Virus record (IMG/VR): IMGVR_UViG_2534681934_000021
Span: 1-7,469 of that record
DNA from: a virus
Taxonomy: Duplodnaviria; Heunggongvirae; Uroviricota; Caudoviricetes
DNA: 7,469 bases
Reading direction: 5' to 3' (one strand)
Shown here piece after piece: positions 1,283-7,469 of this stretch. Numbering within the stretch: the first letter of the stretch is position 1; each line of letters starts with the position of its first letter. The notes beneath the pieces were generated by a model. It was not told the origin of the DNA. It did not search any database and was given only the letters and a program-made list of their open reading frames with translations. A program made the position numbers and the translations under genes.

Positions 1283-2158
1283 TTATATAGATTTATTTTT
1301 TGCAGGGTTGTGTGGCTTGGGAGGTGATCGAGAGATCAGAATTGCGTTGTTTAGTGAGTTGCACCTATTAATTTTAAAATAAATACAATTGCCTTTTTTT
1401 CGATCTTCCCACCAGTCAGGTGCCGGGTCTGGCTCAACATGTAAAGCATCGGCAAGTCCTGATATCAAGCTGTATGACTGAACTCCATCAATGTGCTCTG
1501 ACAGTGATGGGGTAACATTCTGTCTTAGTGGATCAAGAATAAAATCAATACCTTTAATTCTGGCGTGTTTGGCGGCAGGCACAAAGTCTGAGTCCCCAGC
1601 AACAAGGACAATTACATCAACAAGTTTTTCATAAGCTAAAGTCGTGATATCCATCCCTAGCTTGATATCAACTTGTTTTTGTTTGATGTCATAGTAAAAA
1701 TCATCATTTGTCAGTTCATCCCATTTTTTCGTTCCTTTCATCAGAGCATCAAGGGAGAATGTAGTTAGTTGCCATCGCTTATTATCAACAAGATTCCCTA
1801 ATCTTAAGGCTGTTTTTCGAGTTTTTCTTAACTCTTCATGCAGCTCCGTTCTCAGAATATATGATTTTTCGAGTTTGAAATTCTTGCGACCAGGCGTCTT
1901 ATTGCCAGGCTCAGGAAGTGGAAGGCGTGTTTGAATGTCGAGTGGTGGACAGTCATAGAAGTAAATTCTATAAAGCTCAAGCGGTTCCCTACGTTCTTGT
2001 GATTGACGTTTTCCATTAAGATGGGAAAGAACCATTGACCATATTACTTTCATTATGCATTGCGCAGTCAGTTCATGCTCGGCGAAGTGTTTACGATGCG
2101 TAGCATGAACACGCTGCATGAAAAAACCCGCATCAATTAAAATTGCTGCTTTCTTCAT
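1283..2158 (-). CDS. NYN/LabA-like (PIN-fold) nuclease-domain protein, 291 aa; a cargo gene occupying the rexA-rexB position; candidate exclusion/defence gene
   Basis: The N-terminal MKKAAILIDAGFF and C-terminal VLVAGDSDFVPAAKHARIKG motifs are typical of NYN/LabA domains, along with an internal acidic motif (VDIKLGMDI). The start ATG is at 2158. The gene lies between the cI stop (2286) and the point where lambda-like sequence resumes (~1400). The last ~38 codons read through lambda-like DNA. Confidence 0.7.
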   Translation of the reverse strand: MKKAAILIDAGFFMQRVHATHRKHFAEHELTAQCIMKVIWSMVLSHLNGKRQSQERREPLELYRIYFYDCPPLDIQTRLPLPEPGNKTPGRKNFKLEKSYILRTELHEELRKTRKTALRLGNLVDNKRWQLTTFSLDALMKGTKKWDELTNDDFYYDIKQKQVDIKLGMDITTLAYEKLVDVIVLVAGDSDFVPAAKHARIKGIDFILDPLRQNVTPSLSEHIDGVQSYSLISGLADALHVEPDPAPDWWEDRKKGNCIYFKINRCNSLNNAILISRSPPKPHNPAKNKSI

Positions 2159-2167
2159 AAGAGTCCC

Positions 2168-2227
2168 AAAAAAATAGCCCAGAGCCGTTATGCAGATATT
2201 AACAATTGTCTGCGAACGGGGCTGGGC
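2168..2227 (-). terminator. Candidate intrinsic terminator/attenuator hairpin followed by U7, immediately upstream of the NYN start codon
   Basis: On the minus-strand RNA: GCCCAG-CC-CCGUU...(inner stem GCAGA/UCUGC)...AACGG-CU-CUGGGC, then UAUUUUUUU (plus 2168-2174 is A7). The outer stem is 11 bp with a 2x2 internal loop. Confidence 0.35.
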
Positions 2228-2238
2228 TTGGTTTAATT

Positions 2239-2267
2239 AATCTATGCCAAGTTGACTGTGCCGTCAA
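2239..2267 (-). promoter_or_regulatory. Candidate sigma70 promoter between cI and the NYN gene, overlapping a perfect palindrome TTGAC-N6-GTCAA
   Basis: -35 TTGACG (complement of 2262-2267), 17-bp spacer, -10 TAGATT (complement of 2239-2244). The palindrome ttgactgtgccgtcaa is at 2252-2267. Confidence 0.25.
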
Positions 2268-2285
2268 CATAAAACTTACTTCCTA

Positions 2286-2998
<713 letters not shown>

Positions 2999-3004
2999 AC
3001 GTTA

Positions 3005-3074
3005 AATCTATCACCGCAAGGGATAAATATCTAACACCGCGCGTGTTGACTACTTTACCTCTGGCGGTGATAAT
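3005..3074. promoter_or_regulatory. Right operator region: OR3 (3009-3025), OR2 (3032-3048), OR1 (3056-3072), with divergent pRM (leftward) and pR (rightward)
   Basis: OR3 TATCACCGCAAGGGATA, OR2 TAACACCGCGCGTGTTG, OR1 TACCTCTGGCGGTGATA. pR has -35 TTGACT (3046-3051) and -10 GATAAT (3069-3074). pRM has -10 TAGATT (complement of 3005-3010) and -35 TAGATA (complement of 3028-3033). Confidence 0.85.
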
Positions 3075-3089
3075 GGTTGCATGTACTAA

Positions 3090-3302
<213 letters not shown>

Positions 3303-3305
3303 CCC

Positions 3306-3337
3306 CGCTCTTACACATTCCAGCCCTGAAAAAGGGC
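3306..3337 (+). promoter_or_regulatory. nutR: nutR (boxA CGCTCTTAC 3306-3314; boxB GCCCTGAAAAAGGGC 3323-3337)
   Basis: Both elements match the lambda nutR boxA/boxB as recalled, directly downstream of cro. Confidence 0.75.
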
Positions 3338-3399
3338 ATCCAATTAAACCACACCTATGGTGTATGCATTTATTTGCATACATTCAATCAATTGTTATC

Positions 3400-3440
3400 T
3401 AAGGAAATACTTACATATGGTTCGTGCAAACAAACGCAAC
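3400..3440 (-). promoter_or_regulatory. pRE, the CII-activated promoter for repressor establishment
   Basis: The minus strand carries the CII binding motif TTGC-N6-TTGC (TTGCGTTTGTTTGC, complement of 3426-3439) overlapping the cII start, with a -10-like AAGTAT downstream, as in lambda. Confidence 0.5.
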
Positions 3441-3710
3441 GAGGCTCTACGAATCGAGAGTGCGTTGCTTAACAAAATCGCAATGCTTGGAACTGAGAAG
3501 ACAGCGGAAGCTGTGGGAGTTGATAAGTCGCAGATCAGCAGGTGGAAGAGAGACTGGATTCCAAAGTTCTCAATGCTGCTTGCTGTTCTTGAATGGGGGG
3601 TCGTTGACGACGACATGGCTCGATTGGCGCGACAAGTTGCTGCGATTCTCACCAATAAAAAACGCCCGGCGGCAACCGAGCGTTCTGAACAAATCCAGAT
3701 GGAGTTCTGA
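3417..3710 (+). CDS. cII: CII transcriptional activator, 97 aa, apparently intact
   Basis: MVRANKRNEALRIESALLNKIAMLGTEKTAEAVGVDKSQISRWKRDWIPKF...EQIQMEF matches lambda CII. The ATG is at 3417; the ORF track's upstream start at 3357 is an in-frame extension. Confidence 0.9.
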   Translation: MVRANKRNEALRIESALLNKIAMLGTEKTAEAVGVDKSQISRWKRDWIPKFSMLLAVLEWGVVDDDMARLARQVAAILTNKKRPAATERSEQIQMEF

Positions 3711-3733
3711 GGTCATTACTGGATCTATCAACA
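3656..3733 (-). ncRNA. oop: oop antisense RNA (~77 nt) overlapping the 3' end of cII
   Basis: The minus strand reads GTTGATAGATCCAGTAATGACCTCAGAACTCCATCTGGATTTGTTCAGAACGCTCGGTTGCCGCCGGGCGTTTTTTATT, i.e. the lambda oop sequence as recalled, with a GC-rich hairpin and U-tract terminator. Confidence 0.65.
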
Positions 3734-3742
3734 GGAGTCATT

Positions 3743-4664
3743 ATGACAAATACAGCAAAAATACTCAACTTCGGCAGAGGTAACTTTGCCGGACAGGAGC
3801 GTAATGTGGCAGATCTCGATGATGGTTACGCCAGACTATCAAATATGCTGCTTGAGGCTTATTCGGGCGCAGATCTGACCAAGCGACAGTTTAAAGTGCT
3901 GCTTGCCATTCTGCGTAAAACCTATGGGTGGAATAAACCAATGGACAGAATCACCGATTCTCAACTTAGCGAGATTACAAAGTTACCTGTCAAACGGTGC
4001 AATGAAGCCAAGTTAGAACTCGTCAGAATGAATATTATCAAGCAGCAAGGCGGCATGTTTGGACCAAATAAAAACATCTCAGAATGGTGTATCCCTCAAA
4101 ACGAGGGAAAATCCCCTAAAACGAGGGATAAAACATCCCTCAAATTGGGGGATTGCTATCCCTCAAATTGGGGGATTGCTATCCCTCAAAACAGGGGGAC
4201 ACAAAAGACACTATTACAAAAGAAAAAGAAAAGATTATTCGTCCGAGAATTCTGGCGAATCCTCTGACCAGCCAGAAAACGATCTTTCTGTGGTTAAACC
4301 GGATGCTGCAATTCAGAGCGGCAGCAAGTGGGGAACAGCAGAAGACCTGACCGCCGCAGAGTGGATGTTTGACATGGTGAAGACCATCGCGCCATCAGCC
4401 AGAAAACCGAATTTTGCTGGGTGGGCTAACGATATCCGCCTGATGCGTGAACGTGACGGACGTAACCACCGCGATATGTGTGTGCTTTTCCGCTGGGCCT
4501 GCCAGGACAACTTCTGGTCCGGTAACGTGCTGAGTCCGGCCAAACTCCGCGACAAGTGGACCCAGCTCGAAATCAACCGTAACAAGCAACAGGCAGGCGT
4601 GACAGCCAGCAAACCAAAACTCGACCTGACAAACACTGACTGGATTTACGGGGTGGATTTATGA
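3743..4664 (+). pseudogene. O: Replication initiator O, disrupted by a 23-bp tandem duplication inside the ori iterons and by a 1-bp shorter A-run
   Basis: The N-terminal 174-aa ORF (3743-4267) matches lambda O up to the iterons. An intermediate frame (4153-4350) matches ...LKLGDCYPSKQGDTKDTITKEK. The C-terminal portion (KRKDYSSENSG... to GVDL) is in a third frame, ending at 4664. Confidence 0.85.
4092..4198 (+). repeat. ori-lambda iterons, five copies where lambda has four (iteron 3 tandemly duplicated), followed by an AT-rich region
   Basis: tccctcaaaacgaggga (4092-4108), tcccctaaaacgaggga (4112-4128), tccctcaaattggggga (4135-4151 and again at 4158-4174), tccctcaaaacaggggga (4181-4198). 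The duplicated 23-bp unit is 4135-4157 and 4158-4180. Confidence 0.8.
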
Positions 4665-4972
4665 AAAACATCGCCGCACAGATGGTTAACTTTGACCGTG
4701 AGCAGATGCGTCGGATCGCCAACATCGATAACCAGGACATGACGATATCGGTCTGGGTCTTTCCTGATACTGATATTTCAGATGTATCGCGTGAGTTAAT
4801 TGCGGCAATTAAACAGGGGTATCTAACAGTAAAAGCCGCCGGGGTATGGGCGGGGGGCATTGAAACACCTTCGGTGGAAACTCCATCGGAAGGCTCTAAA
4901 TTTTTTGGTTTTGATATGGATAACGAATTCATCAGTGGTTTTGATGTAGGGGCATGGGGAGTATTACTCTGA
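4661..4972 (+). pseudogene. P: P' remnant: the first ~21 codons of replication protein P fused in frame to the C-terminal ~80 codons of an unidentified tail/baseplate-module gene (deletion junction near 4725)
   Basis: MKNIAAQMVNFDREQMRRIAN matches the lambda P N-terminus, then diverges (IDNQDMTISVWVFPDTD...). The ATG overlaps the O stop, and the ORF's own stop overlaps the downstream stf start (TGATG at 4970-4974). Confidence 0.7.
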
Positions 4973-5766
4973 TGGCGAAAAATGACTTTAAAGCGTTTGC
5001 AACTGATCGAAATGCCAATGTTATGTCGCAGGAGGAATGGGAAGCGTTGCCTGCGCTTATATCCGGATTTACAGCAGGGAAAGCATCCAGTGCGCAAGTC
5101 AATAAGGTTATTCGGCAGGCCAGCTTTATTGCTGCAGCTCTGGCCCAGTTTGTAAGTGATAAAACGCAACGGGATGTGCTTGATAATGGTGATCTGCCCG
5201 GTTTTGTTGAATTGCTGGGATCGGGGTTTGCTGTTGAATACCTGAGCCGCAAGAATCCGTTTGGCGATATCAAATCGGACGGCACGGTGAAAACGGCTCT
5301 TCAAAACCTTGGTTTGGGAGAAGGTGCTCCAGCTATTGGCGTTCCGTTCTTCTGGCCGTCCGCTGCAATGCCAAATACTGTAATCGACAGCTGGTCCTGT
5401 ATGGTGTTTTTGAAGTTCAACGGCGCGAAATTCTCTGCCACTGATTATCCTGTGCTGGCGAAAGTGTTTCCTTCGCTGGTATTACCTGAAGCCCGCGGTG
5501 ATTTCATTCGTATCTGGGATGACGGGCGAGGTGCAGACGGTGGTCGCGAATTATTAAGCTGGCAGGCAGCTACAAACTTTTCTCAGTTTGCCGGGAATAT
5601 AGGCGAAGGTGCGGGACACGCAATTAACTTTCATGATGGCATCGCCGGAAATCAGCCAGGATTTTCACGATTTAATTTCACCAGTAACTCTGTGGGTGAT
5701 GGTGTGAATTTTGTTGCAGTCAGACCGCGAAATATTGCATTTAACTTTCTGGTGAGGGCTAAATAA
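4954..5766 (+). CDS. stf: Short side tail fibre protein with a receptor-binding-type C-terminus; the likely true start is ATG 4972 (MAKNDF...)
   Basis: C-terminal motifs [12 protein letters not shown]...[20 protein letters not shown]...[19 protein letters not shown]...[11 protein letters not shown] resemble the lambda Stf and P2 H / Mu S C-termini (GAPIPWP...NIAFNYIVRLA). It is followed directly by tfa. Confidence 0.75.
5297..5322. other. Candidate DNA-invertase (Pin/Gin/Cin/Hin family) crossover site inside stf
   Basis: The 26-bp sequence CTCTTCAAAACC-TT-GGTTTGGGAGAA has imperfect 12-bp inverted half-sites around a 2-bp core. It fits the AAACC-NN-GGTTT pattern of hix/gix/cix/pix sites and lies at the boundary between the constant and variable parts of the fibre. 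Confidence 0.5.
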
Positions 5767-6359
5767 TGAAACCTGTTTTTGATGAAAATGGGCTGGCTAC
5801 AGTGCCGGGCGATATGCGTTGTTTTTATTATGATGCTGAAACATCTGAGTATACGGGCTGGTCTGATGAATATATTAATACTGGCGTAAGTATGCCCGCC
5901 TGTTCCACTGGTATTGACCCTGGCGAAAACATTCCGGGAAGAGTGGCAGTATTTACAGGTAAGGGATGGAGCCATGAAGAAGACCATCGCAATGAGACTG
6001 TTTACTCAATCGAAAATGGCGCAGCTGTTACAGTGGATTATATCGGTGCCATCAAAGACGGTTATGTCACGATTTCACCGTTAACGCCATACGATAAATG
6101 GGATGGTGAGAAATGGGTGACAGACACTGAGGCACAACACAGTGCCGCAGTAGACGCGGCAGAAGCACAGCGCCAATCACTGATTGATGCAGCAATGGCT
6201 TCCATTAGTCTGATTCAGCTGAAGTTACAGGCCGGACGGAAACTGACTCAGGCAGAAACAACCCGACTTAACGCCGTGCTGGATTACATTGACGCGGTGA
6301 CGGCAACAGATACCAGCACCGCGCCGGATGTCATCTGGCCTGAACTGCCGGAGGCGTAG
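5766..6359 (+). CDS. tfa: Tail fibre assembly protein (chaperone), 197 aa
   Basis: The ATG overlaps the stf stop (TAATG). The C-terminus ...LNAVLDYIDAVTATDTSTAPDVIWPELPEA is typical of the lambda Tfa / Mu U family (VDTSTAPDIEWP). Confidence 0.8.
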   Translation: MKPVFDENGLATVPGDMRCFYYDAETSEYTGWSDEYINTGVSMPACSTGIDPGENIPGRVAVFTGKGWSHEEDHRNETVYSIENGAAVTVDYIGAIKDGYVTISPLTPYDKWDGEKWVTDTEAQHSAAVDAAEAQRQSLIDAAMASISLIQLKLQAGRKLTQAETTRLNAVLDYIDAVTATDTSTAPDVIWPELPEA

Positions 6360-6783
6360 GCCATTCAATATCTGGCGCACCGGAAGTATCGACCAGCTCC
6401 AGTGCGTCCAGATAATCCAGCCACAAATTATATTGCGTCAGTTCGTCACCTTTCAGACGACCAATAGCCGCTTTACCGGGCCATTGCTTACTGTTCATGT
6501 ATTCGTTGGCCTGGTTAATTAGTAGCTGTCTTTCTGATTCAGTAATTTCAATAAGCTCTTCATGCGTGGGTGGAGGAATATCTGCCCACGCAGGCAGCCC
6601 ATCATCTCCGGCAATACGGATTTTTCCTTGTGGCGGTTCAGCCATAAACTCACTGATAATATTTTGATTTACTTCCTTAGCGTCTGATAAATCCCATCCC
6701 TCTGATTTATATTTATCAATCATATCCACAGGGAAAAAAGCATTATGCCTTGCGCTATAAACATATTCGTCCATATAAATCAC
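6331..6783 (-). CDS. tfa: Second tail fibre assembly protein in inverted orientation (U'-like), orphaned from its fibre gene; the likely start is ATG at 6774
   Basis: The C-terminus ...NLWLDYLDALELVDTSGAPDIEWPTPPAVQAR is Tfa-family. It converges on the plus-strand tfa with a ~29-bp 3' overlap, the classic invertible-segment arrangement. Confidence 0.75.
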   Translation of the reverse strand: MIYMDEYVYSARHNAFFPVDMIDKYKSEGWDLSDAKEVNQNIISEFMAEPPQGKIRIAGDDGLPAWADIPPPTHEELIEITESERQLLINQANEYMNSKQWPGKAAIGRLKGDELTQYNLWLDYLDALELVDTSGAPDIEWPTPPAVQAR

Positions 6784-6891
6784 CCTGAATAAAATTACTC
6801 ACCAACAGCCCACCAACTGTAATTCATCGATACCGTGTGAACCGCCCCGGGTTTCCTGGAGACTAAACTCCCTGAGAAAGAGGTAAACAGG

Positions 6892-7218
6892 ATGACTAAA
6901 AATACTCGTTTTTCCCCCGAAGTCCGTCAGCGGGCGATTCGTATGGTTCTGGAAAGTCAGGATGAATATGACTCACAGTGGGCGGCAATTTGTTCCATTG
7001 CCCCAAAGATTGGCTGTACGCCGGAGACTCTGCGTGTCTGGGTTCGCCAGCATGAGCGGGATACCGGGGGCGGTGATGGTGGGCTCACCAGCGCTGAACG
7101 TCAGCGTCTGAAAGAGCTGGAACGTGAAAATCGTGAACTGCGCCGCAGTAACGATATCCTTCGCCAGGCTTCCGCTTATTTTGCGAAGGCGGAGTTCGAC
7201 CGCCTCTGGAAAAAATGA
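6892..7218 (+). CDS. IS3-family transposase OrfA (helix-turn-helix / leucine-zipper part)
   Basis: [22 protein letters not shown]...[36 protein letters not shown]. It ends at an A6 run followed by TGA (7210-7218). Confidence 0.85.
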
Positions 7219-7469
7219 TGCCACTGCTGGATAAGCTGCGTGAGCAGTACGGGGTCGGACCGGTATGCAGCGAACTGCATATTGCCCCGTCAACGTATTA
7301 CCATTGTCAGCAACAGCGACATCATCCGGATAAACGCAGTGCCCGTGCGCAGCACGACGACTGGCTGAAGAGAGAGATACAGCGCGTATACGATGAAAAT
7401 CATCAGGTGTACGGTGTGCGTAAAGTCTGGCGTCAGTTGTTACGGGAAGGAATCAGGGTGGCCAGATGT
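7215..7469 (+). CDS. IS3-family transposase OrfB, N-terminal part (partial; -1 frame relative to orfA, 3' end beyond the window)
   Basis: The -1 frame is open from 7215 to the window end: [85 protein letters not shown], typical of IS3 OrfB before the DDE domain. Confidence 0.75.

Follow-up and report, generated by a model that had tools for sequence, protein, structure and literature searches.

A perfect 23-bp tandem duplication within the O gene has given the lambda-type replication origin in the window (the whole stretch of 7,469 nt analysed here) a fifth iteron and has put O out of frame. We place a probability of about 0.85 on the whole account, in which this is a loss-of-function duplication in the origin-bearing O gene of the decayed Escherichia coli O157:H7 prophage Sp1/CP-933H, and the five-iteron array is a fossil origin. 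None of the observations made here conflicts with this account.

The iteron array and the reading frame of O

The 23-mer ATCCCTCAAATTGGGGGATTGCT was found exactly twice in the whole window, as head-to-tail copies, and Tandem Repeats Finder reported at 4135–4190 a period-23 array of 2.4 copies with 100% matches and a score of 112; no match to ATCCCTCAAATTGGGGGATTGCT appeared in 200 dinucleotide-preserving shuffles of the window. Scanning the + strand with the iteron consensus TCCCYYAAAWYRRGGG returned five matches, at 4092, 4112, 4136, 4159 and 4182 (spacings of 20, 24, 23 and 23), where approximately 0.01 would be expected by chance. Alignment to lambda (J02459), through which the window positions of iterons 1–4, annotated there at 39034–39118, were mapped, showed a clean 23-bp insertion between iterons 2 and 4, consisting of an exact second iteron 3 (lambda 39078–39095) and a 5-bp TTGCT spacer; the window thus holds five iterons versus four in lambda. 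The insertion was equally clean in alignments to the prophage of strain 14EC020 and to the thrW prophage of O55:H7 strain CB9615. A preliminary description of this DNA had proposed five iterons through a 23-bp tandem duplication, with a single copy of the unit between iterons 2 and 4 in lambda, and the repeat search, the lambda alignment and the consensus scan all bear this out. Its coordinates were right as well, and its unit was written one base off register (starting at 4136), a shift without consequence where a unit repeats head to tail. Its further statement that an O-binding site is added holds at the sequence level, since the copy is exact and would be predicted to bind O; as to occupancy, only four of six iterons are reported to be strongly bound (PMC7466680).

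The arrangement of the array is that of a lambda-type origin, with dyad-symmetric iterons of ~18 bp, each showing this symmetry, spaced by 20–24 bp inside the initiator gene, and with an AT-rich tract directly to the right of the last iteron, as such an origin requires. The two protein partners are another matter: an intact cognate initiator does not span the origin in the window, where the O frame is broken, and of the helicase loader P, which should follow O, 21 codons are left. Positions are collected in Table 1; the limits of oop were carried over from lambda 38599–38675, presumably the extent of that gene there. This placement is consistent with PMC3349717.

Table 1. Features of the origin region and single-nucleotide differences in the window
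Feature	Position	Strand	Remarks
T-run deletion	2922		In the repressor gene; relative to Sakai
A-run deletion	3281		In cro; relative to Sakai
oop antisense RNA gene	3656–3732	−	Putative, by correspondence to lambda; the pO promoter overlaps the O start
Truncated O frame, 174 aa	3743–4267	+	Residues 1–141 as in lambda O, then 33 out-of-frame residues and a stop
Iteron 1	4091–4108	+	Lambda 39034–39051 via alignment; consensus match
Iteron 2	4111–4128	+	Lambda 39054–39071 via alignment; consensus match
Copy 1 of the 23-bp unit	4135–4157	+	Iteron 3 (4135–4152) and TTGCT spacer; identical to lambda 39078–39100
Copy 2 of the 23-bp unit	4158–4180	+	Extra iteron 3′ (4158–4175) and TTGCT spacer; absent from lambda, phage 21, the 14EC020 prophage and the O55:H7 thrW prophage
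Iteron 4	4181–4198	+	Lambda 39101–39118 via alignment; consensus match; opens with ATCCCTCAAA
AT-rich unwinding region	4199–4239	+	~76% A+T; as in lambda except for A5, not A6, at 4218–4222
Rest of O (linker and C-terminal domain)	4200–4664	+	No longer in the frame of the N-terminal part
A5 run in O	4218–4222	+	A6 in Sakai, strain 155 and lambda; A5 also in the ATCC 43888 assembly
P (helicase loader) remnant	4661–4723	+	First 21 codons, joined directly to unrelated DNA of the tail-fibre region

As 23 bp is not a whole number of codons, the O frame is lost after codon 141. The truncated frame keeps the Phage_rep_O (Pfam) DNA-binding domain complete (residues 22–115, E = 1.9e-36) and loses in frame the C-terminal domain, which is the P-binding part of O; a PDB sequence search with the 174-aa fragment as the query gave zero matches. 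Relative to lambda O, other strains have a net length change of +23; in the window, the duplication (+23) and the A-run at 4222 (−1) sum to +22, and both values are out of frame. The frame is therefore broken with or without the missing A, as had been proposed when the duplication was described as a frameshift independent of the nearby homopolymer change. In Sakai and other strains, the O gene measures 923 bp (900 + 23) and its product ends after 202 aa. The inactivation of O, likewise proposed earlier, agrees with this loss of frame and is already reflected in public records, in which Sakai ECs_0277 is annotated as ‘phage replication protein O, pseudogene’ and the RefSeq entry as ‘replication protein, frameshifted’. 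On the other side of the O start, oop and pO are identical to those of lambda, with one mismatch in ~260 nt aligned, which lies outside oop.

As to how the extra copy arose, a 10-nt direct repeat, ATCCCTCAAA, begins at 4135, 4158 and 4181 and is common to the starts of iterons 3 and 4. Misalignment of the repeats opening these two iterons, by replication slippage or unequal exchange, would copy the intervening 23 bp and yield an exact second iteron 3, a 23-bp deletion being the reciprocal outcome. The array carries the features expected of such an event, namely perfect head-to-tail copies, a unit length equal to the spacing of the direct repeats, and a repeat running 10 nt into iteron 4. The slipped-strand origin suggested in the preliminary description is backed by these repeats, 23 bp apart; unequal exchange fits equally, and the sequence alone cannot separate the two. 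The dyad symmetry of the iterons may, through hairpins, have assisted the misalignment.

Reality, distribution and age of the duplication in prophage Sp1

The whole window matches, at 99.8–99.9% identity and in many genomes, an E. coli O157:H7 chromosomal locus that lies directly after proB-proA-tRNA-Thr (thrW) in the feature tables of strain 155, ATCC 43888 and Sakai, and that is labelled ‘prophage Sp1, lambda-like phage’ in Sakai. Its genes comprise, in order, a truncated integrase, a cI-like LexA-family repressor, cro, cII, O, a P stub, tail-fibre genes and pin. Both the thrW/proA site and this order (int′-cI-cro-cII-O′-P′-tail fibre-pin) are those by which Sp1/CP-933H is identified. Sp1 is a heavily deleted remnant, that is, a cryptic prophage, since P has been reduced to its first codons fused to tail-fibre-region DNA. 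An Rfam scan of the window found nothing except an IS3-family ALIL pseudoknot.

The distribution of the duplication was determined with a junction 40-mer, which spans the novel junction and is unable to seed a megablast match on a four-iteron origin. This probe matched 191 records at 100%, corresponding to 190 of 5,426 complete E. coli genomes, with the finished Sakai genome and the EDL933 re-sequencing among them. The matches listed were O157:H7 or unlabelled strains with Sp1-like coordinates, and every match inspected lies in Sp1. No match to the junction was found in 50,697 phage records, and the exact 46-mer was absent from 185,579 species-representative genomes (GTDB) and from JGI metagenome contigs; among IMG/VR viral contigs it occurred in six, five of which are Sp1 fragments. 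The duplication is thus genuine, fixed in one clonal lineage and absent from the free phage records searched.

Three further occurrences were considered separately. In one IMG/VR contig (L005), the duplication has Sp15-like sequence on either side, and P and ren are intact; SNP mapping shows an Sp1-like patch (O nt ~349–594) within this Sp15-like background, interspersed with a single Sp15 SNP, as well as an additional A at codon 3. This layout was found in none of the complete genomes, and we rejected the contig as an independent occurrence, regarding it as a draft consensus that is chimeric or that, at the very most, records a gene conversion. An apparent plasmid occurrence (pAR-0428-2) was also rejected, being a linear 46.9-kb chromosomal fragment with proBA-thrW-Sp1. 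The genome M1300706002 has two junction matches, and in its 40-kb neighbourhood the Sp1-type genes recur as a further, partial copy with many frameshifts, which is probably a segmental duplication or a misassembly.

The presence of the junction in 190 independently assembled complete genomes, Sakai included, confirms that the duplication is a structural change and no sequencing or assembly artefact, as the preliminary description had held. The contrary reading, in which the array truly holds four iterons and was expanded by an assembly or sequencing error, draws on the quality of the window itself: over 5 kb (1811–6838), the window differs from Sakai by three 1-nt deletions and zero substitutions, which indicates that its source assembly is error-prone. 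This reading is nevertheless practically negligible in probability, as the junction recurs in all those genomes and in the six IMG/VR contigs, and a perfect 23-bp insertion is unlike a homopolymer-type error. The three homopolymer deletions have the profile typical of such error and are probably sequencing errors, which agrees with the distinction drawn earlier between them and the duplication; the deletion at 4222, which the ATCC 43888 assembly also has, may be either genuine or a systematic error common to both.

This distribution shows a single origin followed by clonal inheritance, the one event having taken place in an ancestor of the carrier O157:H7 strains. That the two copies are still identical is expected, because sequence divergence among the carriers is small; and as all carriers are near-clonal, the conservation of the array is uninformative about its function. 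Strain 14EC020 has, in a lambdoid prophage that is complete, the closest four-iteron O gene, which shows 5 mismatches over 900 bp. O55:H7 is the lineage from which O157:H7 arose, and O55:H7 strain CB9615 harbours a complete prophage at the same thrW site, with O (900 bp, four iterons) and P intact and with 21 positions differing between its O and that of Sp1. A relative date within the decay of Sp1 is provided by a 414-bp segment (1392–1805), which completes a 291-aa NYN-domain gene and is kept in the window; Sakai and ATCC 43888 have lost it by deletion, and strain 155 has IS629 in its place. Because the window has both the duplication and the P deletion yet retains this segment, both lesions are older than the losses of the NYN segment, and the duplication is an early lesion that predates several later decay events of Sp1.

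Iteron-number variation in other lambda-type origins

The lambda origin resembles that of Sp1 in its site within O, in iterons 1–4 and the AT-rich tract (bar one flanking base and one A), and in O residues 1–141, oop and pO, which are identical; Sp1 differs from it by the 23-bp copy of iteron 3, the frameshifted O, the deletion of P after codon 21 and the failure to replicate (PMC2669165). Among the origins compared, unchanged four-iteron arrays with an intact O were found in lambda, 14EC020 and CB9615, which are live or complete prophages, and the array with +23 bp at iteron 3, five iterons and a frameshifted O was that of the 190 genomes above, the inspected ones being O157:H7 Sp1.

A second type of expansion is carried by the functional Stx phages P27 and 933W and by Sakai Sp15, in which +39 bp (iterons 1 and 2), with four diverged positions, gives six iterons and an intact O longer by 13 aa (PMC7466680). 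In these origins, as in Sp1, a tandem duplication in the array that lies within O has altered the number of iterons; they co-reside with Sp1 in O157 genomes, and the same iterons are recognised by their O proteins (PMC7466680). The Stx expansion is in frame, diverged, functional and required, whereas that of Sp1 is out of frame, undiverged and located in a dead gene. The in-frame 39-bp unit of the Stx type is absent from the window, where the insertion is of 23 bp at iteron 3, and none of the origins found in IMG/VR exceeded six iterons.

The Stx phages raise the question of whether Sp1 might yet make a full-length O with a longer linker, its frame being regained through a compensating indel or through programmed frameshifting at the A-run. 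The O linker tolerates the additional 13 aa of the Stx phages as well as small in-frame deletions (PMC7466680; PMC6022878), and 38 nt separate the duplication from the A6 run that follows it, where one extra A would bring the change to +24, in frame. A compensating +1 was present in no carrier, however: the window and ATCC 43888 have +22, a change in the wrong direction, and the others +23. The A-run offers no canonical slippery heptamer in the incoming frame, and P is missing anyway. Restoration of the frame is accordingly scarcely credible.

Deletions that end in iteron repeats were found in two other groups, which resemble Sp1 in having an O annotated as frameshifted and in being otherwise lambdoid prophages. 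In the first, O26 strain RM10386 and other E. coli (43 complete genomes), −67 bp leaves three iterons and an O of 872 bp; in the second, single prophages of strain 2003-3014 and of one IMG/VR record (L015), −20 bp leaves five iterons and an O of 919 bp. Both derive by deletion from the six-iteron type, whereas Sp1 derives by duplication from the four-iteron type. Throughout this search of other lambdoid prophages, out-of-frame changes in iteron number coincided with O pseudogenes. This suggests that iteron arrays are slippage-prone, with in-frame outcomes persisting in live phages and out-of-frame ones marking dead O genes; since most of the iteron spacings (19–24 bp) are not divisible by three, an array that slips will usually inactivate O.

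The lambda ori− mutants r93 and r98 and the survivors of replicative killing provide a further parallel, in that small rearrangements at iterons 3/4 abolish origin or initiator function, and their recovery is due to the death of cells in which the origin of a trapped prophage fires (PMC6022878). The lesions of r93 and r98 are 24-bp in-frame deletions selected in the laboratory, whereas that of Sp1 is a 23-bp out-of-frame duplication fixed in nature. The O lesion of Sp1 may represent neutral decay. Alternatively, it may have been favoured, as an SOS-inducible, non-excising prophage with active O, P and ori would kill its host: on induction of non-excisable lambda fragments, in-situ replication is lethal and the survivors carry O, P or ori mutations (PMC6022878). 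Inactivation of O and P would have been advantageous in Sp1 because it has a truncated integrase and a repressor of the SOS-cleavable type, and by analogy with the lambda fragments we infer that selection against replicative killing may have acted on it.

Activity of the five-iteron origin and a possible role of the early region

In Sakai, Sp1 was negative for circularisation, replication and packaging, and its DNA was not amplified after mitomycin C, while its residual early genes were clearly induced by this treatment, for a reason described as ‘unknown’; Sp5 and Sp15 did replicate in these cells, and even their flanking DNA was amplified (PMC2669165). Those cells very probably combined transcription across the Sp1 origin with lambda-type O and P, and an origin without detectable firing under such circumstances argues against one that is activated in trans. 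The reading at issue is that the array is a working origin fired by the O and P of the co-resident Sp5 and Sp15 when rightward transcription of Sp1 is induced. Its components are largely at hand, as the iterons and the AT-rich region are lambda-identical (bar one flanking base and one A), there are approximately four places with lambda-type O/P per O157 genome, and induction of the Sp1 early genes by mitomycin C would give transcriptional activation in cis (PMC2669165); moreover, the O proteins of lambda, P27 and 933W all bind single iterons, and three iterons are enough for lambda growth (PMC7466680). But Sp1 was not amplified where Sp5 and Sp15 replicated and amplified their flanks (PMC2669165), and complementation by O in trans is poor with P co-expressed (PMC6022878), which leaves activation in trans very improbable. 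A fossil origin in a pseudogene is the best reading of the five-iteron array.

The Sp1 early region, whose genes are still SOS-induced (PMC2669165), may retain some residual role. One form of such a role, which we consider unlikely, is an interference module, retained because its SOS-inducible expression damps the replication of lambda-type phages as a decoy or in a dominant-negative manner, with oop RNA, five predicted O-binding sites and a truncated O with its DNA-binding domain as the components. Lambda 38359–39168 on multicopy plasmids blocks rep-lambda phages, an effect that needs oop transcription and iterons 3–4 (PMC3349717; Hayes et al., 2012), and the window has the full equivalent of this segment, in which an intact, lambda-identical oop with pO and iterons 3, 3′ and 4 in cis would constitute an oop+ ori-lambda+ determinant. 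The truncated O, with the lambda residues 1–141 and the whole Phage_rep_O domain, could compete for binding. In addition, induced single-copy cryptic prophages without P show non-immune exclusion of rep-lambda phages (PMC3349717), and the induction of the Sp1 early genes for an ‘unknown’ reason (PMC2669165) points in the same direction. The inhibition phenotype, however, was shown only with multicopy plasmids, the copy number of which was raised further by rop deletion (PMC3349717), whereas Sp1 is a single chromosomal copy that is not amplified, and the presence of Sp1 in Sakai does not keep Sp5 and Sp15 from replicating well (PMC2669165). The truncated O product is at present a prediction, and clonal inheritance alone accounts for the retention of the region. 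That the early region is a domesticated SOS-inducible brake, made up of oop RNA, a five-site decoy and a truncated O unable to recruit P, is likewise quite improbable; were it true, the brake would modulate incoming rep-lambda phages or the co-resident Stx prophages, and hence toxin output, and the extra iteron 3 would strengthen the iteron 3–4 element needed for the plasmid inhibition phenotype.

As a fossil origin, the locus matters little in itself, given that the duplication lies in an O gene already annotated as a pseudogene or frameshifted, within a known cryptic prophage. Variation in iteron number among lambda-type origins has already been published (PMC7466680); the specific 23-bp event seems undiscussed in the literature searched, in which ‘five iterons’ did not occur in the context of lambda. 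In the collections searched, the 23-bp duplication is a clean lineage-specific marker, confined to O157:H7 Sp1, and could serve for typing or for dating the decay of Sp1. The survey further suggests a simple rule, by which only in-frame events in the array, such as the 39-bp expansion of the Stx phages, survive in live phages, and an ‘origin variant’ that lies within a gene should be read together with the state of the remaining replication module.

Differences of the window from other Sp1 copies

Across 5 kb of the window, no substitutions were found relative to Sakai, and three 1-nt homopolymer deletions were identified against the same reference, at 2922, 3281 and 4222. By such deletions the cI-like repressor ORF is split and the end of cro altered, a condition found in the window only, while the deletion at 4222 is common to the ATCC 43888 assembly. 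All three deletions are probably sequencing errors.

Larger differences were observed in the NYN-domain ORF, which is intact in the window, as a 414-bp segment of it (1392-1805) is missing from Sakai and ATCC 43888 and is replaced by IS629 in strain 155. The insertion site of the window's own IS629/IS1203 copy within Sp1 also differs from that in the other strains examined, and the exact layout of the window was not found in any complete RefSeq E. coli genome, the top coverage being 95%. Furthermore, the tail-fibre and tail-fibre-assembly segment (window 5300-6838) has the reversed orientation in ATCC 43888 and in the IMG/VR contigs L006 and L008, which is consistent with a Pin-invertible segment adjoining pinE that is still flipping, or flipped earlier, among strains.

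Features located in the window and in the compared records
Feature	Record	Position	Strand	Remark
NYN-domain ORF	window	1283-2158	(-)	intact, 291 aa
P remnant	window	4661-4723		21 codons, fused in frame to unrelated DNA
IS629/IS1203 (IS3 family) copy, left end	window	6837-7469		100% identity to strain 155 copy
ALIL frameshift pseudoknot of the IS629/IS1203 copy	window	7173-7289
Complete lambdoid prophage at thrW	L013 (O55:H7 CB9615)	17635-40001
Iteron-count variant locus	L020 (O26 RM10386)	2125-2996		O annotated frameshifted
Iteron-count variant locus	L021 (strain 2003-3014)	2114-3032		O annotated frameshifted

The P remnant and related records

The P stub and the DNA joined to it form a chimeric ORF of 103 aa (window 4661-4972), the second part of which is labelled "phage replication protein, missing N-terminus" by RefSeq; this appears to be a mis-annotation, because the fused DNA is not P. 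At the thrW site of O55:H7 CB9615, the prophage has intact int, P and O, the last with four iterons, and a different immunity region. Two further records look like assembly problems. One, pAR-0428-2 (L012), bears a plasmid label and consists of a linear piece of chromosome with proBA-thrW-Sp1; in the other, M1300706002 (L022, 1-2000), Sp1-type genes are present a second time close by, as an incomplete copy with many frameshifts.

Iteron number in other origins

Natural variants of lambda-type origins included a three-iteron form lacking 67 bp, found in 43 complete genomes, and a five-iteron form derived from the six-iteron type through a 20-bp deletion. The O annotation of variants was checked in two complete genomes (L020 and L021). 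Among those of the IMG/VR variant contigs L015-L019 that contain the O start, L015, L016 and L019 have a truncated O ORF.

The 23-bp duplication itself is also present in IMGVR_UViG_2541047164_000016 (L005, 11985-13062), where an Sp1-identical patch carrying it lies inside an Sp15-like replication module with intact P and ren; codon 3 of O there has an additional A (+1). This arrangement represents either a chimeric draft consensus or gene conversion from Sp1 to the Stx1 prophage, and if the latter is true, O of this Stx1 prophage would be killed.
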